A stretch of DNA of 63,782 nt, counting the filler, from Folioceros fuciformis (Eukaryota): assembly GCA_049999805.1 (NCBI GenBank). It is 12 parts of 12 records of this genome, joined end to end, with 100 filler letters (N's around TTAATTAATTAA, not from the genome) between each part and the next. Parts side by side here need not be neighbours in the genome. Positions count along the whole stretch, not along the records: positions 18,213 to 22,521 come from JBNGIO010001033.1; 11 more parts are not named here. One strand, given 5' to 3'. Position numbers and translations under genes: made by a program. Positions 14,927-50,621 of this stretch are shown in pieces; within the stretch, counting starts at the first letter, position 1, and each line of letters opens with the position of its first letter. The notes beneath the pieces were generated by a model. It ran no database searches. It worked only from the letters and a program-made list of their open reading frames with translations, and was not told the origin of the DNA.

Positions 14927-15026
14927 NNNNNNNNNNNNNNNNNNNNNNNNNNNNNNNNNNNNNNNNNNNNTTAATTAATTAANNNNNNNNNNNNNNNNNN
15001 NNNNNNNNNNNNNNNNNNNNNNNNNN
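14927..15026. other. Artificial 100-nt contig linker (N44-TTAATTAATTAA-N44); first of 11 copies
   Basis: Identical linkers at 14927, 18113, 22522, 31140, 36023, 38556, 40578, 44148, 46577, 54128 and 61231, each 100 nt. The core gives stops in all six frames. Confidence 0.98.
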
Positions 15027-15073
15027 CTTTTTCAACCAAAACAAACTACTACCCCAAACTTTGGAGGTTCACA
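15027..15073 (-). mobile_element. Terminus of dispersed repeat family B (TG-starting, probably an LTR)
   Basis: Matches 36385-36431 and the reverse complement of the element starting at 22091 (TGTGAACC..AAGTTTGGGGTAGTAGTTTGTTTTGGTTGAAAA). Interrupts a Copia integrase. Confidence 0.75.
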
Positions 15074-16260
15074 ACTCCGTTCGTGAATCTAATGAAAATA
15101 TACTTCTGTGCTCAATTGTCAAGCTTTGTCCGAGTAGCCTTATGGGTGTGTGCATACACTGTTGATCCAAATACTCTGAGTATGGATAGGTTAGGTCTCG
15201 ACCCTGTCTCTTGTGGTAGGGAGGAGGTAAGGCTCTGGTTGACAATATATACTGCATGGGACATACCTTTAGGCCAGTAGCTTTTGGGTAGGCTTGCATG
15301 GATCAGCATTAATAGAGCGCAGTCTTGTATTGTTCTGTTCATCCGCTCTGCTACTCCATTCTGTTGAGAGGTATGTGGAGTAGTGACATATTGGGTGATC
15401 CCGTGATCTGTACAAAATTGCAGGATTTGATTGGAGTTGAATTCACGACCTTGGTCTATGTGAATGGTAAGTAAGGGTTCTCCAGTTTGCTTTTCAGACC
15501 AAGTTTTATAGTCCTTGAGGCAAGTAAAGGATTGTGCCTTGTGTTTCAGCAGGTAGAGCATTGTGAAACGGGAGTAGTCATCTATTACAGGCATGAAGTA
15601 GAGGTATCCAAATAGTGATCTTTTGAAGGGGTTTAAGTTGAAGTCTTCTTGTTGCTCTCGCCGAGGGCTCTTTGGGAAAGGGAGAACGATGACTCTTGCC
15701 TAGGGAACAAGCCTCAAAGATTCCGAAATCTTCAATCTTGGTGAGTGGAATGCCTGCAGTTGCCTCAGTTTTTAACATGTCCTTCATCTGCTAAGTGTGC
15801 ATATGTTCGAGGCGTGCGTGCCACAAGTAGGACTGACTGATGCTGGTGGCTGCAAAAAGGGAAGAAGTTTTGGCAGCTAGAGAAGTTGTGACATTCAGGT
15901 GATAGAGGTCGTCGTCTTTCAAGTCCCATGTGGCTATTAGGTCTCCTTATGAGGTTTCAATAATTCAATGACCTTCGCCAAAGCACACATAATAGCCAGA
16001 TTGATCAACCTTCTGGATTGAAAATAGATTCTTTGTCAACCCTGGTATGAGCAGCACATCTGATATTTGTAGAGTAGAGTTGGGCTTGACATGCAGGTCC
16101 ACTATTTCGTGGCCTGAAATTGTGTGTTTGGTGTCGTCCCCAAGGCGGACGAAATCTGGAGGTGTGGTGGGGTGGACATGGCTGAAATATTCACGTTGTG
16201 GTGTCATGTGCTGGGATGCCCTAGAGTCTATGTATCAGGTATGTTGACCGTGTGCTAAGA
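15074..16260 (-). mobile_element. Degenerate Ty1/Copia pol fragment: protease, GAG-pre-integrase, integrase core
   Basis: YIDSRASQHMT (protease), LWHARLEH, rve core IDDYSRFT...IDQGREF...TPHTSQQNGVAERMNRTI. Contains stops and frameshifts. Confidence 0.92.
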
Positions 16261-16447
16261 GACATGAGGCTACTAGGTTGAGGGTGGAGGAGTAGTTAAA
16301 GTAGGTAATTGACTCATTGTGTGAGAAAAGCCCTTGAAAGTCGCTTCATGGTGAGGGTAAGTTGCTCTGATTGCTGATATCGTAGATTGGCTGCAGCTAA
16401 TTGTTTCCAACATTCTTCGTAGGTATGACCAGGGATATTACAGTATC

Positions 16448-16754
16448 TGTAGGGTTATTAAAGCCCAATGTGCTTAGGCTAATGTGTTTAGTCTAAGATT
16501 AGTGTCTAGTTAAGTATCATTAGTTTAGATTAGCTTAAGCTAATCTGTAGGAAGCTTCTTGCACAGCTTCCTGTGGGCTTCTTGTGAAGATTCCTAGGGA
16601 GTTCTTCTAGAGGGTATAAATACCCCCTTGAGCTCCCTTGTATATTGAGAGACTCATTGTGAGAGTGTGACCTTTCTTTCTCCTCTCCTCCTTGCCTCCT
16701 CCTCTCTTCTACTTCACCATGCTTCTCTAGCGATCCTTCAAGTGGTATCAGAGC
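16448..16754 (+). mobile_element. LTR family A, copy 1 (16448-16740) plus tRNA-iMet primer binding site
   Basis: TG...CA termini, internal TATAAATA, followed after 2 nt by TGGTATCAGAGC (16743-16754). Confidence 0.9.
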
Positions 16755-16999
16755 TAGGGTGTGGAGCAAGATGGTTGTGTCTGTTGTAGGTGCTACGGAC
16801 GGAGGCGCAAGTCCATGAGGATGGACATCTAGGAGGAGCACGGGCCGGGGCGCCAGGCCGCCCGGTTGAGGCGCCAGGCGGCGGTAGCAAAGGCGCCGCA
16901 CGCTGGCTAGGGCTAGGGCGCGCCAACGGGGCGCCAGCGAGGCGCCACCCGGGCACCATCGAGGCGCCACTTAGGCGCCAGCGGAGCGCCACCTGGGCG

Positions 17000-18112
17000 T
17001 GTAGGGTTATTAAAGCCCAATGTGCTTAGACTAACACGTTTAGTCTAAGATTAGTATCTAGTTAAGTATCATTAGTTTAGATTAGCTTAAGCTAATATGT
17101 AGGAAGCTTCTTATGCAGCTTTCAGTCCGTTTCTTGTGAAGCTTCCTAGGGAGCTCTTCTAGAGGGTATAAATACCCCCTTGAGCTTCCTTGCATATTGA
17201 GACCTTTTGTGAGATTGTGACCTCTCTTTCTCCTCTCCTCCTTGCCTCCTCCTCTCCTCTCCTTCACCATGCTCCTCTAGCCATCCTTCAAGTGGTATCA
17301 GAGCTAGGTTGCAGAGGAAGATGGTGATGTCCGTGGGTGATGCGGACAGACGCTCAAGGCTATGAGGTGCGAGGGTCTCGAACCCCGTCGTGCAAAGAGT
17401 GGCAGTACGGAGCAAGAGTGATCTTGGGTTGTGTGCAACGTCTGGGGAGCTTCAAGATCGCTAGGAACACCAAGAGTGCATGTGCGTAGGGCGCTCAGCC
17501 ACGGGCGTACAAGACACCCCGGCCGCAGCGGGCGCATACAGACCCTTGCCGGTGGGCCGCGCGGGCTGCCAGCCCTGGCCCACGGGGCCGTCAGCCCCGT
17601 AGGCGAGGGCCTTCAGCCCTGCAGGCGAGGGCCTTCAGCCCCGGCCGATGGGCCGTGCGGCTGCGAGCCCCAGCCCAGCGGGCCGCGAGAGCTGCCAGCA
17701 CCGGCCCTGCGGGCCGTGCGGGCTGCTAGTCCCACCCGGGGGCTATCAGCCCCACGGCCTTGGGGAGGGGCTCCGCCAGGCGCCGCCGGGTCTGGCCAGG
17801 GCCAGGGGCGCCCTAACACGGGCGCTAGCCCAGCCGGGGCGCCCAGCCCAGCCTACAGGGCGTCCGGCTTAGAGGGGGGGCCCGATTCGCCCGCTGTAGC
17901 GCCACCAAGCACTAGAGGTGCCAGAGGCAGGGACGCCCGGCCGGGCCAAGCCCGGACGCCCGGGGCGAAGCCGCCACATCTGACGAGCGCCGTTGACCAG
18001 GCCATCGGCGCCACGATGCGTCCAGGCCAGCGAATCGCCGGGCCAAAGAGCGTCGCGAACGCCGGAGGACGGACACCGCAGGTGATGAGAGGGAGAGCTC
18101 AGGCAACGCGAG
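17000..18112 (+). mobile_element. LTR family A, copy 2 (17000-17290) plus PBS and GC-rich internal leader, truncated at gap
   Basis: Highly similar to 16448-16740. TG...CA termini, PBS TGGTATCAGAGC at 17293-17304, then very GC-rich sequence. Confidence 0.88.
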
Positions 18113-18212
18113 NNNNNNNNNNNNNNNNNNNNNNNNNNNNNNNNNNNNNNNNNNNNTTAATTAATTAANNNNNNNNNNNNNNNNNNNNNNNNNNNNNNNN
18201 NNNNNNNNNNNN

Positions 18213-18964
18213 GCATTGGCGCCCTCAAAACTTACAAATGTCGGTAACGCCCTCCTGAGCTCCCCCTTTTTATTTACACAATAAAAAGGTTGTCTATCAT
18301 CTGAAGTCACTTGCCTACTCACTCGCCCCTCATCTAATATCTGATCAACTATTGAATCATCATCCCTACACCACTGACTCACAAGCATCTGCAACAAATG
18401 CCTAGGCATCATGTTATTCTTAAAACAGCGATGCCTATGAGCCCTAGATCCAAACTGCACTACATCCAACTTTATAGGTTCACCCAAATAATACTTGATC
18501 TTCTCAAAATCTCGCCTCAACACCACTCTTCTATCCATTTGCGAATCCACACTCTCAATCAAAAAACCACATTCTTTCCTCTAATGTTTTTGCACCAAAT
18601 TCAAAATCCTAATTAGCTCATAAAATAACACCGACCTATAATCCAACAAGCCTTTTCCCTTGCCTGCCATTGAATGCCCTTGACATTCCCAGCCAGCTAT
18701 TATCAGATCAACTTCTTCCTCCATTTGAAATTGTACCAATCCTATAAGCCTAACATCTTGCGGCCAAACAAAAAACGCTTGCTTCACAGCTTCAACCTTT
18801 AATTGCTCAGGATACTTTTTGCATAATTGAAACACCCTTGTCTTCGAAATTGTCTGACAAACTTCATTTGGATCACAATAAATGTAACGTCTGACCACAT
18901 ACCCAGTAGCCAACATAGCCTCCAGACCAGATGCAATCCCAGCAAACAACTCAACCACAACCAA
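18213..18964 (-). pseudogene. C5-cytosine DNA methyltransferase domain within retroelement (premature stop, truncated by gap)
   Basis: Motif I VVELFAGIASG, motif IV DLIIAGWECQGHS, motif V GLLDYRSVLF, motif VI-like FLIESV, motif VIII AHRHRCF. In-frame TAG at 18583-18581. Confidence 0.9.
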
Positions 18965-21231
18965 CCCATACTAAGATGAACTCAATGTCACAAGTTTATT
19001 ACACACAGGTTCAAGTTTACAAACTGCTTCTTTTGTGCAAAGCTGAATTTTATTATCTAGCTAAAACTCAGTCTGTCGCTTTTCAACCTCTCTAAAAATT
19101 TCAACTAATGCTCTACCAACACTTTCTCTCATTGCAATTTCTTGCACTGTGTTATGACTAAATTCCTTTAAACATAACTTATCCATATGACGCTCCACCC
19201 ACAATTTATCATCTTCATCTTCTTCCTCTTGTTCATCCCACAAAGTCGTCATGTTTACTACACACGCATCTTGCATGTCCTCCTGTAATTGCAGCTTAAG
19301 TGGAATTGTTGCTACTCTCATTCCTTCACCTTGTCACCATCCTGGACGATAGTAAAACTCCTATGTCCATAAGTCCACTCCTCCTCCATGCATGAATAAA
19401 GCCTCTGTTCCTAAAATAACATCAAAATTTCAAGATTTGACAATCAAACATTTCATTTCAATCGCTGTCTCTTCTTCTATCCCAAGCTTAAAACATAGCT
19501 GCAATTTCTCTTTAGTTTCCCCCATCACCGCCTCCAGACCTCCTTTGGCCATCCTTATCTTCCATCTTGTCTCCTGTATATCTTCCTTTTTCAATCCCAT
19601 AGCATACGCCGTGCTGAAATGAATCAATGTAGGTTGCGCTCCTAAATCTATCAATACCTTTTCTAATGCAAAACCTTCTACCAAAAATTCACACCCACCA
19701 TTGCAATTCCCGGACTAACTTTTGTCCTGTCTACATCATTTCGCATATTGCTATTGAGACAAAGTGAAACTTTCTTGTCTAATTTTCCACTTGCATTAGG
19801 CCACTCTACTATCACGTCCTGTAAAAGTTTTCGAATTTTTGACTTGCTCACCCCCACTTTGACGCCCAATTCTAACACACTTCGAATACAACCAATCACA
19901 TCACTCTAAGACACCTACGTTCTCTTGCTCACTTGCTGTTCCAACACCTTCACTGCTCTGCCATGCATCTTCTCACCAAAATCTTTCATATGCACATCTA
20001 ATACTTCAAATGATTGCGGATATTTCCAGCCTGACACCACCGATCTTCCATGGTCTTTATGCTGACCTTCTAGTCTTGTGTTGTATCTTTTTTGAGCAAC
20101 CTCTACTTCCAATGCATCTCCCCTGTCCACTTCACAAACAAATGCATCCAGTTGAAACTCCTTGTAAGCTTTCTCCTTCTCACCCAAATCCTTCCTTTTT
20201 TCCATTGTCCTAACTTCCTTGATTTTAACTCCGCCATTCTGACCACCACCTGCCTTCAACCTATCAATCTCAGCCTCCAAGTTTGCTATATGCAACTCTA
20301 ACGATTTGTAAGATTTGCTCATCCAACCCAAATTATCTCCACTGGCTCCTCCAAATCTATTTCCTTCAGCCCTCTGCACCTGTCTCACATTCTTAACACT
20401 ATGCCCCTTAAAACCAAACTTTGTGGGCTTGAGAGATGGATACTTCTGCCAACAAACTTTCTCCAAATGTCCTTTCTTTCCACAATGATTACAACCTACA
20501 TCCCTCTTAATTGAACACTCCATCATCACATGAGAACCACTCCCACAACGCAAGCACTTTATCCCTTTTTCTGTTTCTACATTCATGACAGGTTTCATGT
20601 ACCTATTGTCCATTCTTGACATGTTCGGTTGCTGCTGCCAAGTTGGTCTCCATTTAGGTAGAAAATTATGTCGGGGAACTGTCGCTGAAAATACACCTCC
20701 CTTTCTATTTGTCCCAACCTTTCTTCCCATGGCCTTTAGCAATGCTCTTGCCTGCTCATGCCTTTTTGCAATTGGGAATACCTAGTCCAGTGTGTATGTT
20801 TTACCATACAATGCTGTCAATTCTCTAAACACATCTTCCTTAATATCTTCATCCAAATTGCAAATATACTTAAAACAAACTTCCATTTCATTGTGCATCC
20901 CTGTATCTGTCACCAGCTGACTAGCACGATTGTAAAACATAAGTGCTGTCTCATTCAGCTTCCTCTTCAAATTTGCCAACTCTTCTATCTTCATGGCATT
21001 AACAGATGGAAACCTCATCTCCAATCAAATGAAGAATTCCTTCACCGGCTCAGCATGTTTACTAGACACTACCAAATCCATGAAACTCTTCAGGTTAAAC
21101 TTGTAAGCATCTCCATACAACAAGTTCCCTAACAAAATAAATTCAAATATGGGGTCTAACTCAACGGCCTCACCTCCACACTCCTGTAACTTAATCATAT
21201 AAAACATACACATTAATTGGTTAATGGACAC
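18213..21231 (-). mobile_element. Decayed Ty3/Gypsy-like retroelement polyprotein: gag - 2x CCHC zinc knuckle - aspartic protease - C5 cytosine methyltransferase
   Basis: Consecutive ORF pieces share one frame apart from one frameshift near 19690. Zinc knuckles CLRCGSGSHVMMEC and CNHCGKKGHLEKVC, protease VLIDLGAQPTLI...FDVILG, then DNMT motifs. Confidence 0.85.
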
Positions 21232-21253
21232 TGATGACTTGGGATGGCCGGAA

Positions 21254-21546
21254 TGTAGGGTTATTAAAGCCCAATGTGCCTAGACTAATGTGTTTAGTCT
21301 AAGATTAGTGTCTAGTTAAGTATCATTAGTTGAGATTAGCTTAAGCTAATCTATAGGAAGCTTCTTGTGCAGCTTCCTGTGGGCTTCTTGTGAAGCTTCC
21401 TAGGGAGCTCTTCTAGAGGGTATAAATACCCCCTTGAGTTCCCTTGTATGTGGGACTCTATTGTGAGTGTGACCTCTCTTTCTCCTCTCCTCCTTGCCTC
21501 CTCCTCTCCTCTCCTTCTCCATGTAGCTCCTAGAGCGTTCCTTTCA
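21254..21546 (+). mobile_element. Solo LTR of family A with 5-bp target-site duplication
   Basis: TGTAGGG...TTTCA flanked by CGGAA at 21249-21253 and 21547-21551. No PBS follows. Confidence 0.92.
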
Positions 21547-21653
21547 CGGAATACTTCTCACTCTTTGCAGGTAGTGAAGGATTGCTCCATGAGCTACATG
21601 GTGAAGGAGGAGAGGAGAAAGAGAGGTCCAATTTACCTTCATAGGAGAGCGGT

Positions 21654-22090
21654 CTACCTCATGCCCATGAGTGTCCGAGCTTGTGCAAATTGCTCTGAAG
21701 AGAGCCCCTTGGTAAGAACATCTGCAGGGTTCTGACTGGTGTAAACTTTGACAAGCTGTACCCTCTTGTCTTCCAACACCTCTCGAATGAAGTGATACTT
21801 CACCTCCACATGTTTGGTCTTCGCATGAAACACTGCATTCTTCGCCAATTGGATAGCACTCTGGCTATCACAATGCAACACTGGCAGCTCAACCTTGATC
21901 CCCAAATCTCCCACTAAACGAGCAAGCCAAATGGCTTCCTTACACGCCTCAGTAGTTGCAACATACTCGGCCTCCGTGGTAGATAGCGTTATGCACGATT
22001 GCAAACAAGATCGCCATTAGACTACCCCTCCAATGCACATGAAGACATAACCTGATGTGGACCCCCTTGTGTCCATATCCCCTGCATAAT
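21654..22090 (-). mobile_element. Ty1/Copia RNase H fragment (Tnt1-like)
   Basis: YAGDMDTRGSTSGYVF, LSTTEAEYVA, CDSQSAIQLAKN.VFHAKTKH, NPADVLTK. One internal stop. Confidence 0.93.
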
Positions 22091-22521
22091 TGTGAACCCT
22101 AAGTTTGGGGTAGTAGTTTGTTTTGGTTGAAAAAGGGTTGATAGTGGTATGGTTTGGTTTTCTTTTTCAACTTATTTTCCCTAATTTTTCTTTATTTTCT
22201 AGCCATTTTTCCTATTTTTTTTTGTGCTAATTAGGTTAATTGACCAGAAAATAGTTGGTTTGGTTATAAGAGTGGGTATAGGTTTGGTCCCAGACCTGGG
22301 AAGGTTTAGGTTCGGTACCAGGCCATAGGGTTGGGTGATTAGTTTAATATTAATTAAAGATATATAATATTAAATGATTAAATAATAAAATAATGGTTTG
22401 AACATAGGAACGAGTATCTGGGTATGTCAGTGTCAGGGGTCAGGGTCTAACGATAGGCTGGCTGATTGCTTGGTTGGCATGAACGGCCATGGAGGCCATG
22501 CCCTAGCTAGAGCTAGAGGCA
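22091..22521 (+). mobile_element. Repeat family B (TG-starting, probable LTR), inserted in Copia RNase H
   Basis: About 300 nt match the reverse complement of 36123-36431. Begins with TG exactly where the Copia frame is broken. Confidence 0.78.
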
Positions 22522-24320
22522 NNNNNNNNNNNNNNNNNNNNNNNNNNNNNNNNNNNNNNNNNNNNTTAATTAATTAANNNNNNNNNNNNNNNNNNNNNNN
22601 NNNNNNNNNNNNNNNNNNNNNTAACGCCGGGCCGGAAGTCGGGTCGCGGATAGGAGGCGCGTCACCGCCACGCCGGCTGCTTGCGGGCCCCGCTGCTCTC
22701 CACTCAGAAATTCCTTCTCCTCTGCAACTTGCGTCTCCCCGCTTGCTTGCTTGCTCGCTCCCTGCCCAGCTCCATGCAACTGGGGCCTCAAGTAGGTGCA
22801 CCTTCTTTCATCATCTTCTCTAACCATTTGGTGCACCTACCCCTATCCTTCTCTTTCTCTTCTACGTGCTCACAACCACAACAACAAATAAACGCCTACA
22901 ACCAAGTGCAAGAAGAGATTTTTTTTCTTTTTTATATTAAATGAGGGAACATCCCTTCCCTTCCCTAAGCATGCACTCCCGAGCTCAACGCTAGCTGGTG
23001 CTATTGTGCTCGGTGTAGCCATAGCCAAAGCTAGAATCTTATGTACATATGTATATCTAGGTGTAAATGTAAACAAATATATGTACATACAAAGGAAAAA
23101 CTAAGACTCCAATGAAAAGGAATGGAATGGAATGCAATGGTGAGGTGAACAACAGTAGTTGGCATACAGAGCCAGATTCGAAGAGGAAAAAAAAAAATGT
23201 GAGGAGGCGACAAAAACGGGCACCCCGGAGAAGTCAGTGGACCAAACCAGGCTAGTCTGGGAGTTTTCTCCCAAGTTGTTGGGCAGTTCTCCGCTTCACC
23301 CAGACAGGGACCCCTCCACGTCAGGGACGAGGCGGGACAGGACAGAAGTTTCGAGATTCTCCAAACCCCGTCAGTCGCAACAGGCGTGCGCCAAGAGGGA
23401 CTCTTGGCACTGCTGTCTTTGCGGACTCCGGCCAGTTCAAGACCAGGAGGTGGCCAGTAGGCCACAGCCTTTTCTTGAATGACCACGAGCTTTCGGGAAG
23501 TCTCGCAGTGCTACAGGCAGGTAGCGGACATGCCAAAGCATGTCCAAGTCGTAGTGCGCCTGAGAGGGTACTTCCCTACCTGTTAGAAGGGGACGTGATG
23601 TCTTCATGATCCATGACGTGTGAGTCTGCTACTGCTTCGGTGCTTTGCTGCATGCTCTCCACACAGCACCAGCGCACAGCCTTTATATCAGCTTAGACAT
23701 CCGTCTCTTGCCCCGCATGCTAAGGAAGCCGTTGAATCGGTATTGGCTCCTGCATCAGGTGCAAACACCGAGTTGGAATATTTCAGGCGCGAGAAGAGGA
23801 AGGCATATCCATGGCAGCCAGTGGATCAAAACAGCACTGAGACTCTTCGCTACTCTGCTTTTTATTCAACTGCTGCTTGTTCAGTGTGTAAGGTACATGC
23901 TAGCGGTGGGTGAACCCACAGGGCAAGGGCAAGGGCTTGCAGGGCAAGACAACCAGTCATGCTTGGGACGTCCACATGCCCCTCCTCAGCCCCCCAGCGT
24001 CAACAATAAGCCTGCTATGTTACAGCTAGGAAGAGCGGACGCCTGCCTACCCGGAGTTGATTCCCAGTAGGTTCAAAATCCTATCGTTGGCCCCAGGCTC
24101 TTAAACATACATCTGGGGAACCCTATCAGACTCGTCTGTACACACGCCTGCATATCATACACACAAAAGAAGAGAGACCTCATTATGAATTGTTGCAACT
24201 TAGTGATACTGGACATCACAACTCTGACAACCTAGTAGCCCAGAGTCTGGCACACAATTCGTTCAGCGAAACACATGAGGGGACCCGCAACTAGATTCGT
24301 CATTCAATGTTCAACACTTT

Positions 24321-30669: not shown

Positions 30670-30741
30670 AGGAGGCAATCAGGATTTAACTGATGACCTA
30701 TCGGACTGCAACCGGTTGCTCTACCACTGAGCTATACCTCC
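30670..30741 (-). tRNA. trnC-GCA: tRNA-Cys(GCA), atypical / possible pseudogene
   Basis: GGAGGTA TAGCTCAGTGGTAGAGC A ACCGG TTGCAGT CCGAT AGGTC ATCAG TTAAATC CTGAT TGCCTCC T: 72-nt cloverleaf with U73 discriminator. T-loop lacks TTC and the anticodon stem has one mismatch. Confidence 0.8.
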
Positions 30742-36122: not shown

Positions 36123-36431
36123 TATTTAATAGTATTATTTGATTATTTAATATTATATATCTTTAATTAATATTAAACTAATCACCCAACCCTATGGCCT
36201 GGTACCGAACCTAAACCTTCCCAGGTCTGGGACCAAACCTATACCCACTCTTATAACCAAACCAGCTATTTCCTGGTCAATTAACCTAATTAGCACAAAG
36301 AAAAATAGGAAAAATGACCAGAAAATCAAGAAAAATTAGGGAAAATAAGTTGAAAAAGAAAACCAAACCATACCACTATTAACCCTTTTTCAACCAAAAC
36401 AAACTACTACCCCAAACTTTGGAGGTTCACA
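36123..36431 (-). mobile_element. Repeat family B terminus
   Basis: Reverse complement of 22091-~22400. Ends ...GGTTCACA. Confidence 0.78.
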
Positions 36432-37143
36432 CCTCACATGCCAGTTTTAAACAATGAGCGCAAAAAGTAGTAATGATAATGGCGAAGTAGTAATGATAAT
36501 GGCGGCCGCCTCTGTGAACCTATATACATTGTGGAGTGGCATGGAATGGCATGGAGATAGATTGCTCGCACTCTCCTCCCACTACATCGACATGGGATAC
36601 GGCTTACCCATCAAGATGCGTGCCAACTTCTTGCTTCCAAAGTATCAACTTCTTGCCTCCAAAGTATTAGCCACAAAGGGCATCACACATTCGTTGGGTT
36701 GTTAAGAATGAGTTCGTCCTCATTCAAGAGATATTTTCTAATCAAATAGAGGAAGGGCATGACAACACTTTGATCAACATTTGTGTAGTTAAGGTGTTCA
36801 CCAAACAGTGGTGGGAGGTAATAGTGTAGGATCAAAGGATTTGTGTGTTGGATAACACGAAGAAGTGGGTGGACATGCTCGATGTCATGGAGTTAGCTCC
36901 ATAGTTGCTATCTTGAGCTCCCTGAATATTCAGGGTCTTCGGAGCTTGGGTTTCTTCTCCTCTAGATCTGCTAACAATGGTTCAAGAGCTCAACAATGGG
37001 TGATGAAACCTATCTTAAGCTTGAATGCACACAGGAGTGATGTGCAATTGGATCTCAACCCTGGGTTTGTAGTCTCGCATGGTATGCTAGTAAGAGGGTA
37101 CTCAGAAGGCGCCATTAGAGTCAATCATTCAAACCTTGACCAA

Positions 37144-37178
37144 CAAGCTCAAGCTCAGGCTCAGGCTCAGGCTCAGGA

Positions 37179-37211
<33 letters not shown>

Positions 37212-37212
37212 A
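37144..37212. repeat. (GCTCAG)n hexanucleotide repeat
   Basis: About 11 units read directly. Confidence 0.9.
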
Positions 37213-38085
37213 AATAGGGTAGTTGCTATTGTAGAAGGGATCCCCTAAGAGATTCTAAGTGTACATGAGAGGAGGAGGGGGCACAAGGGACCTTGAGTCA
37301 ACAAGATTTTTGGCCACAAAGGGGAGTTGTGCATGTGTTGCTCTCAAACAAGGTGGGCAAGGCGTAGACGACATCAGGCAAGGCTAAAATTGATTTTTGG
37401 CATCTTCATTTAAAAGCTAAACCAAGAGACACTCCCATGGAGACTTAGGTATTCGTTGATCCTATTGATGAGGAGGACAACATGGGTGAAGAGGACAACA
37501 TGGGTGATTAGGAAGCATGGGGCACCATCGGCAACGTCCACAATGGAGTATATGAGCTTTACTTTGCTGAAGGCAGCAATGTGGCAGTGGCAAAATATCG
37601 TCACAGGGTGGTCATGGTAATGGGTGGGCGATTCTACATCTCCATTAATGAAACCTCATATCGCTTGTTTTTTTTATCCTTGCCACATGCACTTGGAGTC
37701 TTCTAATTAAGGATTTGCCTTCTAATCCTTGGTTTTCTGAAACTCGTCCACTACAACTTCTCAGCCCTCACCTTTAGTTGAGTCCTTGGTAAAGAGTTAA
37801 GGCTAGACTACTCTATAGTTGTAAAAGTAAGTACAATTATGCCCATGTTATAAGTACATTTTAAGTTTGTAGTCTTTGTATTTAGATAAAATGACACATC
37901 CAGGATGCAAGTTGTGCACAATGTACATCTAAGGTTTGAGAAGAGCAAGCTTTAGTCTTGATTGTCTTTGAAATTACAACATAATCTTGAGATCCATCGT
38001 AACAACCTTATTTGATGATATTATTGAGTTCATCCTTAAGTTTGATACGATGAACTCATGATATATTAGTTCATGGGTTCATGAA

Positions 38086-38465
38086 CTCACTCTTAACTTG
38101 ATTCCATTTTAGGTTCTCAAATTCACTAACAAGTTACACGATCCTGCACATGCACACTCTTAACTAGATTCCATTCCAAGTTCTCAAATTCACTAACAAG
38201 TTACATGATCTCAAATTCACTAACAGGTTACATGATCCTACACGTAGACACTCTGAACTAGATTCTACATCTACCTAGTCACGTGACCTTGTACATTTAC
38301 ACTCTTATTTAGATTCTATTATAGGTTCTCAAATTAAATTCACTAATAAGTCACACGATCTTGCACATGCACATTCTTAACTAGACTCCATAGAAAGATT
38401 CTATGTTCTCAAATTCACAGCCAAATCGTATCATCTTGCACATGCACATTCTTAACTAGATTCCA
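38086..38465. repeat. Imperfect ~67-bp AT-rich tandem repeat
   Basis: Recurring TTCTCAAATTCACTAACAAGTTACACGATC..GCACATGCACACTCTTAACTAGATTCC, about 5-6 partial or complete units. Confidence 0.8.
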
Positions 38466-38826
38466 AAGAGAGAATAAAAACTTACAACTATAACAAACAT
38501 CATTGAACTAGGCTTTTATTCTTTCTTAACCACATACACACATCTAGATTTATACNNNNNNNNNNNNNNNNNNNNNNNNNNNNNNNNNNNNNNNNNNNNT
38601 TAATTAATTAANNNNNNNNNNNNNNNNNNNNNNNNNNNNNNNNNNNNNNNNNNNNTAACAACTAATACTTTATAATTTTTTCATGTTATTTTCTTATTAA
38701 GTTGTGAAATTTTCATGTCATGTAACAATATAGAATCTTAGGAAGGATATAATTATGTATAAGACCATATAATAATGTCACCTTCAGCTCTCAAATTAAA
38801 TTCAGCTTCCTTGCGAATGGGATAAA

Positions 38827-45573: not shown

Positions 45574-47307
45574 GCTTGCTGGTTGGTTGGCCGGCCACAT
45601 CGACGGCGGGTTCACGGCAACCCAGTGGCGGCGCTGCATCCAGGCCTGGGAGTGGTGTCGGATCCAAGGTAGTCGGGGCTGGATCCGGAAGCCAAGCACC
45701 GGCGTGGCTGTAGGAACTCAAGCAGCCAGGCAAGCTGGCCTTTGGCTTCTAAGTGGGCGAATCCAGCAGCCACCCAGGCCGGGCAAGCTGGCTGCCTGGC
45801 CAGATCCGAAAGGCAGGAGGCCGATTTGCGGCCTTTGGGGGACGGAGGATCCAGGCAGCCAGGTTGTCTGGCTGGACCGTGGCCAGATTGGTGGGCTGGC
45901 TGAGTTGTTGCCGAAGCAGCCAGGCTACACGGGGCAAATCTGGCCGGAATGGCAGGCCGGCTGAAGGCAACCTTACAGGTGGATCCGTCTAGGCAGGCGC
46001 TGGGCGAGCAGGTGGCCAAGGAAGGCAGGCAGGCCTGCAGGTTGGATTTAGCCAGCCAGCGGACCGGCCTCGCTGTAGCTGGAGGCGGCCAAGCAGATAG
46101 CCCAAACTTTGGGCTAGTAGGGTCTAGGCGCTGGCCGGCCAGGCAGGCAGCCAGAGGCGGCGCTGGATCCAGGCCAGGCGGGCCTCGAACTAATCCAAGC
46201 TGTGATGGCTGGCAGGTGAGTCTGAGGCGGATCAAGGCGGCGGTTGGCCAGGGAGGGAATCCTGGCTGGGGGAGGCCTGCTGGCTGGCGGGTGAATCCAG
46301 CAGGCTAGATGTGGAGGCAAAACCCCGGGCACTGATTGCCAACGGGTTCCACCTTTAGTGGCCACACTTATCCCACTGTCGTTGAGACATTGGGTTTCGT
46401 TCCCACGAAGGAGCGATGGGGTTCCTTGCTGCTGTGGATGGAGGGTCGGACTTGATCAACTCGATGATGGATTCGAGGGCTCCCCTCCAGCTCCGATCAG
46501 GCGTAGGACAGGCCTAGCTGTTCGGCGGTGAGCTGCACCTCTCTTGGTGCCCACAAACTCACTCCAGTCACTACAANNNNNNNNNNNNNNNNNNNNNNNN
46601 NNNNNNNNNNNNNNNNNNNNTTAATTAATTAANNNNNNNNNNNNNNNNNNNNNNNNNNNNNNNNNNNNNNNNNNNNGTGGAGATCAATAAAGATCTTTCT
46701 TTCTCTCATTTCCTATATTTATATTTGCCTCATCGAGATTCATCTATGACCTAAGTTTTGTTTTAAGTATGATAAATATTTTAGTAAAAAAAGACTTTAT
46801 TGGAAAACAAGATGGAGAAACTCATCTACTGCAGAGGAGAAACCCATTTACCCCAAAAAGGAAGGAAAAAGAAGGACTACAACACTACTAGGATGAAGAA
46901 AACTAACCCTAAACTAATATATTATAATCTAGGAGAAGGGTCCTCCTTCCTTGGGCATAATTGACCAAGTTATCTGTGGGTTATATGCAGAGCTGGAGCG
47001 AGCGCTAGGCCAAGCTTAATGATGATGTGATAAAATGTAGCCAAGCCATACACAAGTGAGATAGAAATGAGATAGTGTAGCCTAGCTGTACGTAACAATG
47101 AGGTATTGAATAATAACGAGTCCATAAACTAACGTGACCACGCCGCCAAAGGATGGTGGCTCGTATTCCGTTGCCAAGCGAATACGATGGGACACACTTT
47201 GCTGGACAGATTGGTGGTGTACAGATTGGTGGTGTATCTTGCTGCATTTTACTAAGTGGCTGCGAAGTTGGTGGTACTACGCATCTCAAGTGGTCAAAAG
47301 GTCTCAG

Positions 47308-50300
47308 CTAACAGGCGAAGATATGTTCGGTTCTCCTTGTCTCGTGGGATGTGTCAAACCCGTACTCAATGAGCATGTCCACCATCCTTTTGTTGTTGTA
47401 CCCGACGGCACGGTCCATGGCCGTGTGGTTCTGTCTGGCCAGGGCATTGGCATCGGCGCCGGCTTTGAGAATAATCTCCATGACCTCCTCCGATGGCAAG
47501 TCTGCTGCGTAGTGCAAGGCTTCGGTGCAGTTCCGTTTAACCAGCTTCGACACGCTGGAAAACTTCTCGGAGTTCACTGCAACACCTTCGTTTATCAGGA
47601 ACCGAACGATGTCTGTCTGCCTGTGCTGAACTGCCCAGTGGAGGGGGGACCTCATCTTCTCGGGGCTTCTTGCCCCGTACAGGTCTGCCCCTTGGCTGTG
47701 TAGGAGCTGTAGGATGGCCAAGTGTCCTTTCCTGCAGCACGTTTCGAGCAGGTCAAGTTGGTCGTTTGCGCTGAAGTTGACCTTCAGTGGGTGAGTGGAC
47801 AAAATCTGTGACACCTTGTTGACGTCTCCTTCTTCTACAGCTGGAGCTAGGGAGTCTGGGAGTCCCCGTGATTTCTTGCTAGGGTCTTGCACTTGTGCTG
47901 GAGAATGAGTGAGATCCGGCTCTTTCTTCTTTTGCTCTGCTTTTTGTCCTGTTAAAATTTCAGCTTGCTGCAGGAAGCTCTGCAGATCCACTGCTGCATT
48001 GTCTACTGCAATATCGAGGGCTGTCTGGCCAAGCTTGTTCTCCAGGTGCACTTCTACCCCGTTGTTTATCAGAAGTTGTGCGATTTCGATGCTTCCTTTA
48101 TCTTGGGCAACCACATGTAAGAGAGTGTTCCCTTCCTGGTCTACGAACTTTGCATTTGCTCCCATTTCGAGAATCAGGGTTTTCGCCATGCCCAGATTAC
48201 CTGACCTGCAGAGCTGACGAAGTGGTGGGTACGGAAAGTTCTTATTACTCCACCCATCTATGTGCTTTAGGTTCTTAATGCGGCCCTTCAGAAGCTCCAA
48301 CAACTGCCCATCTTGTTGGTCGCAGATATACTCTAAAGGGTGAAGATCAAAATACGAGTAACCATCGAATCTGTATCCAAGCTCCATCAACTTTCGGACA
48401 GCTTGGACACTCCCGTGTCTGCAGGCCTGAGCAGCCAGATTTCCATTATAGACATGTCCCGTATTTCCTCCCCTTTCAAGGAGAAACACGACCGTATGTG
48501 CTTGATCCTCTTGCACAGCATAAAGCAGAGGAGTTGTGAGATTGACGTAACGGTAGCCTAACTTCACAGTCGTGTTCACATAATTCTGGGAGCCAGATCT
48601 TCTCCTCTTACCCCCAGTATATGCCAAGGCATCCAACAGCACCTGAATCAGCTCGTTCCTCCCACTTTGTGCGAGCTTATGAATGGGCTCCAGCAGTTCC
48701 TGCTCGTAGTAGGTGCTGAAATCCATCTGCATATCGAATACCAGGAAACGCAGGATGTCGGCATTGTCGTAGTTGCAGGCCTCGTGAACAAGATCATGTT
48801 CTTGGCTGAGAATGTTCCCCCACTGGCTAACTAGAAACCTCAAAACTGAAATGCTACCCTCTACAACGCAAACATAGGCCATCTCAACAACATCCCGGCT
48901 GGGTTGGAAGTCCCATTCAGCCCTGTCAATGACGTGCTTCAATCCATCCGCAAAATCCAGCCTGCAGAAATGGTGGATCAAACGATGTCCATCCCCGTCT
49001 ACTATCAAATTCTTTGATGGCTGCATCAGCACCCAATGTTGAACCCCAGGAAACCGTAGTTTAGAGCGCATGACCATCTCCTGATACTGCTGGCTGGTGC
49101 GAAAGTCATGTTCCTCTGCATCTCTTCCAGCGGTACAGCATGTCTCACAGATGAAGGAGTACAAGTCTTCCACCTCCTTCAAACACTGCACCAGAGTCGT
49201 CCTGACTTTTCTAGGAGCACAGCAGCCCTCGGCAATACCTGCTAGTCTCTCCACTACTTGCTTGAGCCGGTCTTCAAAGTCTTCAAGAGGTTCAATAGGG
49301 ATGGGAACACCACCGACCAGCTTGTCACAAACAAAATCATTCTCTACTAACTCGGGAATCCTGCCATCCAGAAACATCTCCACAAGAATCATACCCAGAG
49401 AATAGACATCTGAGGGGAAAGGGTTCTCCTTCAGTTGCTCTGAGGCGTCAGACGATTCTGAGTAGTCGTAAACCTCAGGAGACACCCAGAAAAGAGATCC
49501 AGCAAAAGTCCGATAATAGGACTTATCCCTCCGGAGGTCCTTATGAAACTGAGGCCAAAATCCACTAGTCGTGGTCTCATAAAATCGTCAAGCAACACAT
49601 TCTCTCCTTTCAGGTCTCCATGGCACACTCCTTGCTTGTGGCAAAACATGACAGCAAGAACAAGCTCTCTGAATATCTCAATCTTTGTCTTCCACCATCG
49701 CAGATCTCTCTCACGTGACAAATCCTCCTTACACGATCTCTGCAGAAAGCTGTTCAAATTGCTGTTCTGGACTCTCTCCATCACAATGCAGGGGCTGTCC
49801 AGCTCCTTGATAAAGAGCACCCCATGCACAGTCACAACGTTTCTAGAACTCCACAAATTCCTCATCCGCAAAGCTTCATTCACAAGGTCACCTAAGCTGT
49901 CAGCAGAATACTGGGTGAGCCTCTTCACAGCGACCTCGACATAGCGGTCTGTTTCTTCCTTGGCCGGATCAAGCAACTCCACAGGGGCATCCCATCCCAC
50001 CACCATGCCGTGCTGCAAATCATGCATCATAATCAAATTCTCCTTTTCATATGTGACTAGACCAGATGGAGTCAGTCTGGTGTCTGTGCGCTTGCGAAGC
50101 CTTGCGAGGTAGACTGATCCGAACCCACCACTTCCAAGGGTTTTGAAGCGTTGCTGCGGCCCTGCGTCTGTCTCCAGTTGCAGATCCTCCAGCGAGTAAC
50201 GTTCCGGGTCATCCTGATGATGCTGCCTGTACCTCTCCATGCGTGGTCCGGTTGCACAGGCTGGAAGCCGTCGAACCAGAGTTGCCTTTTGACGTTCTTG

Positions 50301-50615
50301 TAATAAGCTGCGCGCATATGTACATTGTGGTGGGGTCAACTTGCCCAGTCAAACGGGTGCAGGTCACGGCGCATTTGACAGCTCTGGGATACGGCATGTC
50401 GAACAAACCCTCTGTCGGCTTCTTCGAGAGGCTCCCACTTCTTACAAGTCCGTACGTAGCATGTGTTCAAAGTTTCTTCGAATTCAGGTGATATTTCATC
50501 CCGTAGGCTTTCCGTGAATGGCCTTTGCAAATGCACAGCAACTGAGTTGAAGAGTGGACGACAGAATCTCACGCGTTGCCCAGATTGTGTGCCAAACTTC
50601 AGCAGCTCAAACGGC
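47308..50615 (-). CDS. Intronless TKL-like protein kinase with ~13 C-terminal ankyrin repeats; frameshifted, 5' end unresolved
   Basis: LGSGGFGSVY, VAVKRL, EALRM, HGDLKGENVLLD, DFGLS in ORF 49431-50339. After a 1-nt shift near 49528 it continues as DKSYYRTFAGSLFWVSPE..SDVYSLGMIL in ORF 47308-49485. Ankyrin repeats include TTPLLYAVQED, GNTLLHVVAQ, GQTALDIA, RSPLHWAVQHRQ. Confidence 0.85.
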
Positions 50616-50621
50616 TCTCAA

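Follow-up and report, generated by a model that had tools for sequence, protein, structure and literature searches.

The window analysed here is a 63.8-kb stretch of DNA (63,782 nt) from the assembly of Folioceros fuciformis and is not one chromosomal stretch: it consists of 12 contigs strung together, with 100-nt linkers between them. The subject of this study is a retrotransposon fragment carried on the minus strand of an unplaced 4309-nt contig (window positions 18213–22521), in which gag, two CCHC knuckles, a protease and a C5 cytosine DNA methyltransferase (DNMT) follow one another without introns. This succession had been proposed in an earlier note on this DNA, and translation together with the coordinates of the motifs confirmed it. 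The contig is closed at its low-coordinate end by an artificial linker without strand (18113–18212; N44 + TTAATTAATTAA + N44), and further linkers lie at 14927–15026, 22522–22621 and eight more places. Because the window joins separate contigs, adjacency across a linker is meaningless. As the earlier note stated, the reverse transcriptase (RT), integrase and long terminal repeats (LTRs) of the element are not visible, but the cause is the end of the contig and the 100-nt linker that follows it, and not a gap.

The coding region occupies two minus-strand frames. The gag frame (21279 to 19678) has five stops, at 21025, 20782, 19915, 19906 and 19678, and the protease-DNMT frame (19714 to 18213) has six, at 19430, 19361, 19334, 19061, 18971 and 18581; eight of these 11 stops are TAG, three are TGA and none is TAA. 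One frameshift falls in the overlap of the frames (19678–19714), inside the N-terminus of the protease. We interpreted it as mutational because the relatives of the element have one continuous open reading frame (ORF) at this place, in an alignment that was judged by eye. A programmed gag/protease frameshift was considered and rejected, as the relatives stay in one frame at the site. The gag itself (19678–21253) comprises a capsid-like part and the two CCHC knuckles, and is interrupted by four internal stops in addition to the last stop of its frame. Its N-terminus is missing: the first ~85–130 residues are absent, as estimated from the alignment to the Closterium protein P0013, and the upstream 26 bases of the frame (21254–21279) are already the end of a Copia-type LTR. 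Both knuckles have the form CX2CX4HX4C (20515–20556 and 20452–20493), and the best Pfam result for them, zf-CCHC_5 with an E-value of 0.0028, was below threshold.

The adjoining region (19334–19714, minus strand; stops at 19430, 19361 and 19334) was assigned as a retropepsin-type aspartic protease on the basis of alignment and of its match to the Klebsormidium nitens protein P0144 (E = 9e-7). It has the motifs IDLGAQ (19634–19651) and DVILG (19409–19423), after which comes YRPGW, a motif conserved in the family. The Pfam profile PF13975 matched this region only weakly (E = 0.047); the stretch aligns column for column with the DTGAQP...YDLLLG stretch of the relatives, whose proteases do match PF13975 or PF13650. 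Between the protease and the DNMT is an acidic linker (18971–19333, minus strand; stops at 19061 and 18971) that aligns with the variable linker of the relatives P0003, P0006 and P0009.

The DNMT is DNMT3-like (18213–18970, minus strand), includes motifs I–VIII and the start of the target-recognition part, and is interrupted by an internal TAG (18581–18583). It matched PF00145 with an E-value of 3.2e-8 and 33.8 bits, against a cut-off of 22. In the usual numbering of C5 methyltransferase motifs, motif I (ELFAGIASG, 18926–18952), motif IV with the catalytic cysteine (GWECQGHS, 18671–18694), motif VI (18548–18562) and motif VIII (RAHRHR, 18428–18445) are present in this order, and motif VI is altered, having ESV where ENV is expected. 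The catalytic block CQGHS is invariant in the alignment of the window copy with its relatives. The domain is incomplete, as the contig ends ~250 residues into it and motifs IX–X are absent; the DNMT of the relatives extends ~80 residues further and has an ERE..GF..LLG tail.

The coding capacity of this copy is not intact. Besides the 11 stops and the frameshift, the protease has DLG in place of DTG, ENV has become ESV in the DNMT, and motifs IX–X and the N-terminus of gag are lost. Because of the stops, the frameshift, the altered motifs and the loss of both ends, the window copy can make neither a protease nor a methyltransferase. It is a dead relic of its family and not a working member. The earlier note suggested that the element may act as a methyltransferase on its own cDNA or on host DNA close by; for the window copy these defects rule this out.

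The 5' side of the DNMT element is cut by a nested insertion. A Copia-type 3' LTR unit (21254–21543, minus strand) is 89–90.5% identical to two copies in contig 15027–18112. Translation of the ORF at 21654–22016 (minus strand) gave the C-terminal, RNase H end of a pol that we presume from its sequence to be Copia-type, and that is part of the nested insertion rather than of the DNMT element. Contig 15027–18112 backs the Copia reading, as Pol_BBD and rve domains lie there upstream of this LTR unit. The Copia-type element of that contig, also on the minus strand, has the 290-nt LTR unit in tandem (~16448–16738 and 17000–17288) and continues with a Pol beta-barrel domain (15965–16234) and an integrase (15115–15699). 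A 299-nt repeat is common to the DNMT contig and contig 36123–38555 at 96% identity, and overall the repeats that the DNMT contig has in common with these two contigs are 89–96% identical.

Relatives of the element were sought among proteins, with 1013 candidates scored in a first search and 7999 in a search of longer proteins. Seven of the 1013 matched the protease-DNMT frame, the best being P0003 (734 aa, with PF00145 and PF13975) at an E-value of 3.5e-49 and 48% identity. Among the longer proteins 13 of the 7999 matched, including P0011, a single ORF of 2188 aa that encodes zf-CCHC, Asp_protease, DNMT, RVT_1, RNase H and rve. The window gag matched the gag of relatives by BLASTP (P0013, E = 7e-18; P0010, 2e-11; P0011, 2e-5), and in the alignment P0003, P0006 and P0009 share the window's succession of protease, YRPGW, linker and DNMT. 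In the K. nitens protein P0144 (GAQ93235.1) zf-CCHC (residues 297–313), Asp_protease (598–691) and DNMT (833–971) also follow in the order seen in the window; its DNMT is 33% identical to that of the window over 268 aa (E = 6e-39). A scan of 1.84 billion representatives identified 964 clusters with an E-value of at most 1e-3, 420 with at most 1e-10 and 90 with at most 1e-30, none of them more than 43% identical. Organism names were available for eight of 30 representatives looked up, all green algae, and the named relatives came from Closterium (NIES-53/54/68), Mesostigma viride, Chromochloris zofingiensis, Scenedesmus sp. and Klebsormidium nitens.

This colinear homology of all three parts bears out the reading of the fragment as a retrotransposon polyprotein with a built-in C5 DNMT. 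It also bears on the idea that a host DNMT3 pseudogene or retrocopy came to lie by accident beside an unrelated gag-protease fragment. The window shows one copy only, with 12 breaks in it, which would suit such an accident. Against it, the same order, with YRPGW and the linker, recurs in P0003, P0006, P0009, P0010, P0011, P0013, P0097, P0144 and dozens of loci, and diverged copies in the sequencing runs (below) bridge the join. As judged from these sequence comparisons, the juxtaposition of protease and DNMT is not due to chance, since one set of relatives is matched by gag, by the protease and by the DNMT alike, and we consider an accidental origin extremely improbable. Annotation chimeras as the source of the relatives' ORFs are argued against by an uninterrupted 1369-aa ORF in a metagenome locus, L001.

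The relatives indicated what the truncated 3' part of the window element would have contained. A scan of metagenome contigs gave 72 loci that encode a relative, and the protease-DNMT frame of the window matched 66 of them. As an ORF of at least 900 aa was found on the matched strand in only three of the 72, most metagenome copies look broken. L001 is near complete, with ORF1 (1369 aa, gag-protease-DNMT), one stop, and ORF2 (1047 aa) with RVT_1, RNase H, Integrase_H2C2, rve and a PHD finger; L003 and L004 are arranged in the same way. In L009, L040, L011, L020 and L022, too, RT, RNase H, integrase or PHD comes after the DNMT, and Ty3/gypsy RT-RNase H-integrase is found on the same element in L001, L003, L004, P0011, L009, L040, L011 and L022. 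The placement of the DNMT between protease and RT, which the earlier note had claimed, therefore holds in the full-length relatives P0011 and L001. No convincing terminal repeats were found within the contigs of L001, L003 and L004, the sole match being a 144-nt tandem in L003. The flanks of six long metagenome loci held only other transposon pieces (RT, RNase H, PIF1-like helicase). We noted that 61 of the 72 loci share only eight contig-name prefixes and that their GC content is mostly 35–50%; the loci look like repeated sampling of a single large eukaryotic genome or a few such genomes.

The stop between DNMT and RT has a recurrent context in these elements. It reads TAG CAG TTA in L001 (position 5083), TAG CAA TCA in L003 (4661), TAG CAA CCA in L004 (4509) and TAA CAA CCC in L009 (11717), and P0011 has no stop there. 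The motif stop-CARYYA is the leaky-stop context of plant viruses. The contexts in L001, L003 and L004 fit it, and readthrough is predicted for these three elements.

A second arrangement, which we refer to as type B to distinguish it from the type A order gag-CCHC-protease-YRPGW-DNMT of the window, is RT-RNase H-DNMT-integrase-PHD, with or without a chromodomain. It was observed with a homologous DNMT in P0015, P0020, P0101, P0111 and P0155; P0111, from Chromochloris, also has a G-patch, and P0155 is from Scenedesmus. The type B DNMTs formed their own clade (Shimodaira–Hasegawa-like approximate likelihood ratio test, SH-aLRT, 97).

To place the enzyme, a ranking against solved structures was used in lieu of outgroups, as the DNMT tree was built without cellular DNMT3, DRM or bacterial sequences. 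The family profile matched DNMT3A at 6.7e-14, HaeIII at 3.7e-10, HhaI at 5e-7 and DRM2 at 1e-3 in the PDB; DNMT3A/B/C ranked first (~7e-14), and were also ahead with a single-sequence query. A DRM identity of the window DNMT was rejected, as the match to DRM2 is far weaker than that to DNMT3A (1e-3 versus 7e-14). With cellular DNMT3A/3B/3C the family's DNMT has in common the AHRxR..W.NL block and the C-terminal ERE..GF...LLG block; it differs in having no PWWP or ADD domain, in being embedded in a gag-protease polyprotein, and in a motif IV with ECQ or PCQ followed by GHS. A cellular plant DNMT3 or DRM gene was likewise rejected, since the DNMT is fused in frame behind gag-protease, its motif order is unrearranged and it is multi-copy. 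In the DNMT tree the window copy paired with P0003 (SH-aLRT 83–92), within a loose 23-row group of protease-DNMT elements (SH-aLRT 84) that includes Closterium and Mesostigma and leaves Klebsormidium outside.

The nearest described system is KnitGypsy-Dnmt3 of K. nitens, presented by de Mendoza et al. 2018 (PMC5890265) as a DNMT3 in a Gypsy-type element with a DIRS-like repeat layout. Like the window copy, it has an intronless DNMT3-type methyltransferase inside a streptophyte Gypsy-type polyprotein. We infer that GAQ93235.1 is a copy of KnitGypsy-Dnmt3. As this protein matches the window copy and has its CCHC knuckle, protease and DNMT ordered in the same way, the assignment of the fragment to the kind described in Klebsormidium was supported. 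The two are far from identical: the K. nitens protein is only 31–33% identical to the window copy, lies outside its DNMT group and has an algal rather than a land-plant host, and the window copy is dead and without RT, integrase and terminal repeats. The type A elements of Closterium (NIES-53/54/68), Mesostigma viride and L001 have the same gag-CCHC-protease-YRPGW-DNMT arrangement as the window copy. At the protein level these algal and metagenome elements are 32–48% identical to it, and several of them are intact and continue into RT-RNase H-integrase-PHD. The type B elements (Chromochloris zofingiensis Cz02g39130, the Scenedesmus sp. 'pol', P0015 and P0020) are Gypsy-type with a PHD end and a DNMT 36–42% identical to that of the window, and differ in that the DNMT lies between RNase H and integrase and not between protease and RT.

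More distant are SymbioDIRS-Dnmt3 and SymbioLINE-Dnmt of Symbiodinium. These also are retrotransposon-borne C5 DNMTs, those of the DIRS elements also DNMT3-like, but according to the same text (PMC5890265) they sit on a DIRS (tyrosine recombinase) or LINE backbone, in dinoflagellate hosts, and were acquired independently. We rejected a DIRS-type element of the SymbioDIRS-Dnmt3 sort as the identity of the fragment, as the window has a retropepsin-type protease and the relatives carry rve and Integrase_H2C2 rather than a phage-type integrase. The EpiLTRs of Cymbomonas and Euglena are also LTR retrotransposons with a cytosine DNMT; according to the preprint (bioRxiv 10.64898/2026.05.21.726589) they differ in that their DNMT, which is sister to DNMT4, is placed 3' of the rest of pol, and in that an adenine methyltransferase and a chromodomain go with it. 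Recent texts cite the 2018 work for 'streptophytes (Gypsy-DNMT3)'. In the literature searched, exclusive of supplements, figures and subscription journals, no retrotransposon with a DNMT was found to be described from land plants. The window copy is apparently the first land-plant member of the streptophyte Gypsy-DNMT3 kind within this literature.

Other copies of the element were visible in sequencing runs. The DNA runs X1–X3, which bear the same organism label, stem from a single sample and a single study; three of the four runs thus represent one sample. In X1–X3 all 30 bins of the element were covered, by many short contigs 80–99% alike, and as many as 23 contigs of a run showed the listed variant places. 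Summed depth from run contigs, which does not equal copy number, was ~200–460 in the DNMT bins and ~60–210 in the gag bins in X1 and X2, i.e., not lower in the DNMT, and 1e3–1e5 in the Copia part versus ~100–460 for the DNMT element. Pieces 80–88% alike bridge the linker and the DNMT (18873–19110, 18929–19134, 18744–19008 and 18943–19103), and diverged pieces also bridge the protease into the linker. On whether other copies lack the DNMT, a question raised by the earlier note, the diverged copies in the runs (80–90% alike) gave a clear answer, as they keep the linker-to-DNMT join. Because the other copies differ from the window copy by 10–20%, the family is old in its host. As a separate observation, the differences between X3 and the window were mostly G>A on the plus strand (233 places, versus 109 C>T); read along the sense strand of the element, G>A corresponds to C>T; in the rows shown, all differences found only in X3 were G>A, at places where X1 and X2 agree with the window. 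This excess may mean that the X3 library was prepared with another chemistry, or that X3 sampled other copies.

The existence of these copies is also relevant to a proposal that the fragment is a domesticated host gene, i.e., a gag-protease-DNMT fusion that the plant has kept for its own de novo methylation. The catalytic cysteine and motifs I, IV and VIII of the DNMT3-like domain are still recognizable, as such a proposal would have it. We nonetheless give it scarcely any credence, in view of the 11 stops and the frameshift within ~3 kb, the changes of DTG to DLG and of ENV to ESV, and a family that is multi-copy, diverged and, in this copy, cut by a Copia insertion.

The host was assessed from an ORF with a DUF7138 domain on another contig of the window (54228–61230). 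Its best named matches were in liverworts (54%), mosses (49–50%), a lycophyte (43%), ferns (41%) and Spirogloea (34%), with no recorded protein closer than these, and in a 23-row tree the ORF was placed inside the land-plant clade (SH-aLRT 86), where the ORF, mosses plus liverworts, and vascular plants formed a three-way polytomy. On this sequence evidence, the position is the place expected for a third bryophyte lineage, although one gene is no proof. The matches and the tree position support the claim that the host is a land plant. Based on all of these data, the fragment is probably a dead, doubly truncated gag-CCHC-protease-DNMT3-like piece of a Ty3/gypsy-type element, from the repeat fraction of a land plant of bryophyte grade, that later received a Copia insertion and has many diverged copies.

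Several observations weigh against this interpretation. The contig lacks RT and integrase, its end falls inside the DNMT, and the window shows no intact copy, LTR of the element, target-site duplication or junction with unique host DNA. It is unplaced, and has repeats in common only with two contigs that hold nothing but transposable elements and none with gene-bearing contigs. The runs that support further copies, X1–X3, all come from one sample of one study, and the only other matching study (X6) gave, besides Copia pieces, just one piece of gag, identical over 171 nt. The land-plant placement is one gene tree from a quick search, in which the embryophyte branch, at SH-aLRT 86, was not starred. 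No land plant was found among the 30 relatives looked up by name, the eight named ones all being algae. The deep branches of the DNMT tree are weak and the window copy pairs only with P0003. Finally, KnitGypsy-Dnmt3 gave no methylation in yeast, a result that the authors of PMC5890265 call inconclusive; only the SymbioDIRS-Dnmt3 enzymes methylated CG de novo in yeast there.

Some of these points are what would be seen if the contig came from a contaminating green alga, e.g., a zygnematophyte or a Klebsormidium-like epiphyte, co-assembled with the plant. Of the 30 relatives looked up, the eight with a name are all algae, and the contig is short, unplaced and without a repeat in common with gene-bearing contigs. 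As no repeats tie the DNMT contig to gene-bearing contigs, its link to land-plant genes rests on the common assembly and the species label of the runs. Three findings run counter to contamination. The interrupting Copia LTR is 89–96% identical to repeats on two other contigs and has a far higher summed depth than the DNMT element, and because the contig carries the most abundant repeat of the organism that dominates the runs, it belongs to that organism. The many diverged family copies in the runs suit an old resident, and with the best relative only 48% identical, no known alga is the source. We therefore consider an algal contaminant improbable.

A further alternative accepts the plant as host but has the element arrive there horizontally from an alga and then decay, instead of persisting from an algal ancestor, the vertical descent implied by the earlier note. 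The named relatives are patchy and include no land plant among the 30 looked up, and the DNMT tree does not follow the hosts, with Klebsormidium outside the group of Closterium, Mesostigma and the window copy. The deep branches of this tree are weak, however, and only eight of the 30 relatives looked up carry a host name, so the absence of land plants is not established. In addition, copies within the organism are 80–90% alike and carry a nested old Copia, so that residence has been long. We consider horizontal arrival unlikely, though less so than the other alternatives.

The base composition of the element raised a question about its replication. The sense strand (18213–21253, minus) has 11.5% C versus 28.8% G, and C makes up 5% of third codon positions in the protease-DNMT frame and 9.9% in gag; the observed/expected ratio is 0.41 for CpG and 1.66 for CA. 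The Copia part of the same contig is without skew. Most relatives are milder (C 16–20%, G 25–30%, T 27–33%), with 16% C versus 35% T at third positions in the intact L001. Because decay of double-stranded DNA is symmetric, the skew points either to a bias that acts during the cycle of the element itself or to a codon usage of long standing.

From the architecture of the intact relatives we propose how a working element may function. Its RNA would be translated into Gag-protease-DNMT as the main product, and readthrough of a single leaky stop (TAG or TAA followed by CAR-YYA-like bases in several relatives) would add RT-RNase H-integrase-PHD. As the DNMT is encoded before the leaky stop, it would be made, and may be packaged, in Gag-like amounts, whereas less would be made of the replication enzymes. 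The protease would then free the parts of the polyprotein, the DNMT3-like enzyme could methylate the new cDNA or the integration site, and the PHD finger on the integrase may read chromatin. An action of the DNMT on cDNA has been proposed by de Mendoza et al. (PMC5890265) for elements that make cDNA before integration. We speculate further, and regard it as doubtful, that intact gag-protease-DNMT/RT-RNase H-integrase-PHD copies exist in this lineage with a DNMT that methylates its own cDNA or landing site, in which case the depletion of C would be a strand-specific footprint of the replication cycle, through deamination or methylation.

The remaining contigs of the window contain ORFs for a kinesin, an M20 peptidase, an ankyrin-kinase and an MLKL-like kinase. 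On contig 46677–54127 a 759-aa ankyrin-repeat ORF (47311–49587, minus strand) adjoins kinase ORFs, and a 417-aa ORF (50698–51948, plus strand) has MLKL_N-like and kinase domains; a look-up of this MLKL-like kinase ORF matched only animal and fungal kinase clusters. The sole Rfam match in the window was a tRNA gene (30670–30741, minus strand).

It is rare for a parasite to hold the silencing tool of its host, as retrotransposons with a cytosine methyltransferase of their own do; these have so far been described in dinoflagellates and the streptophyte alga Klebsormidium. Our data suggest that the streptophyte Gypsy-DNMT3 kind either arrived in a lineage of land plants or survived there, and that the published record greatly understates its size and variety, with 964 clusters, two architectures and named members in Closterium, Mesostigma, Chromochloris and Scenedesmus. 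The value of the window copy lies in what it tells of the distribution and anatomy of these elements, and not of their function. If intact bryophyte copies exist, they would provide a tractable land-plant setting for the role of a transposon-borne de novo methyltransferase.

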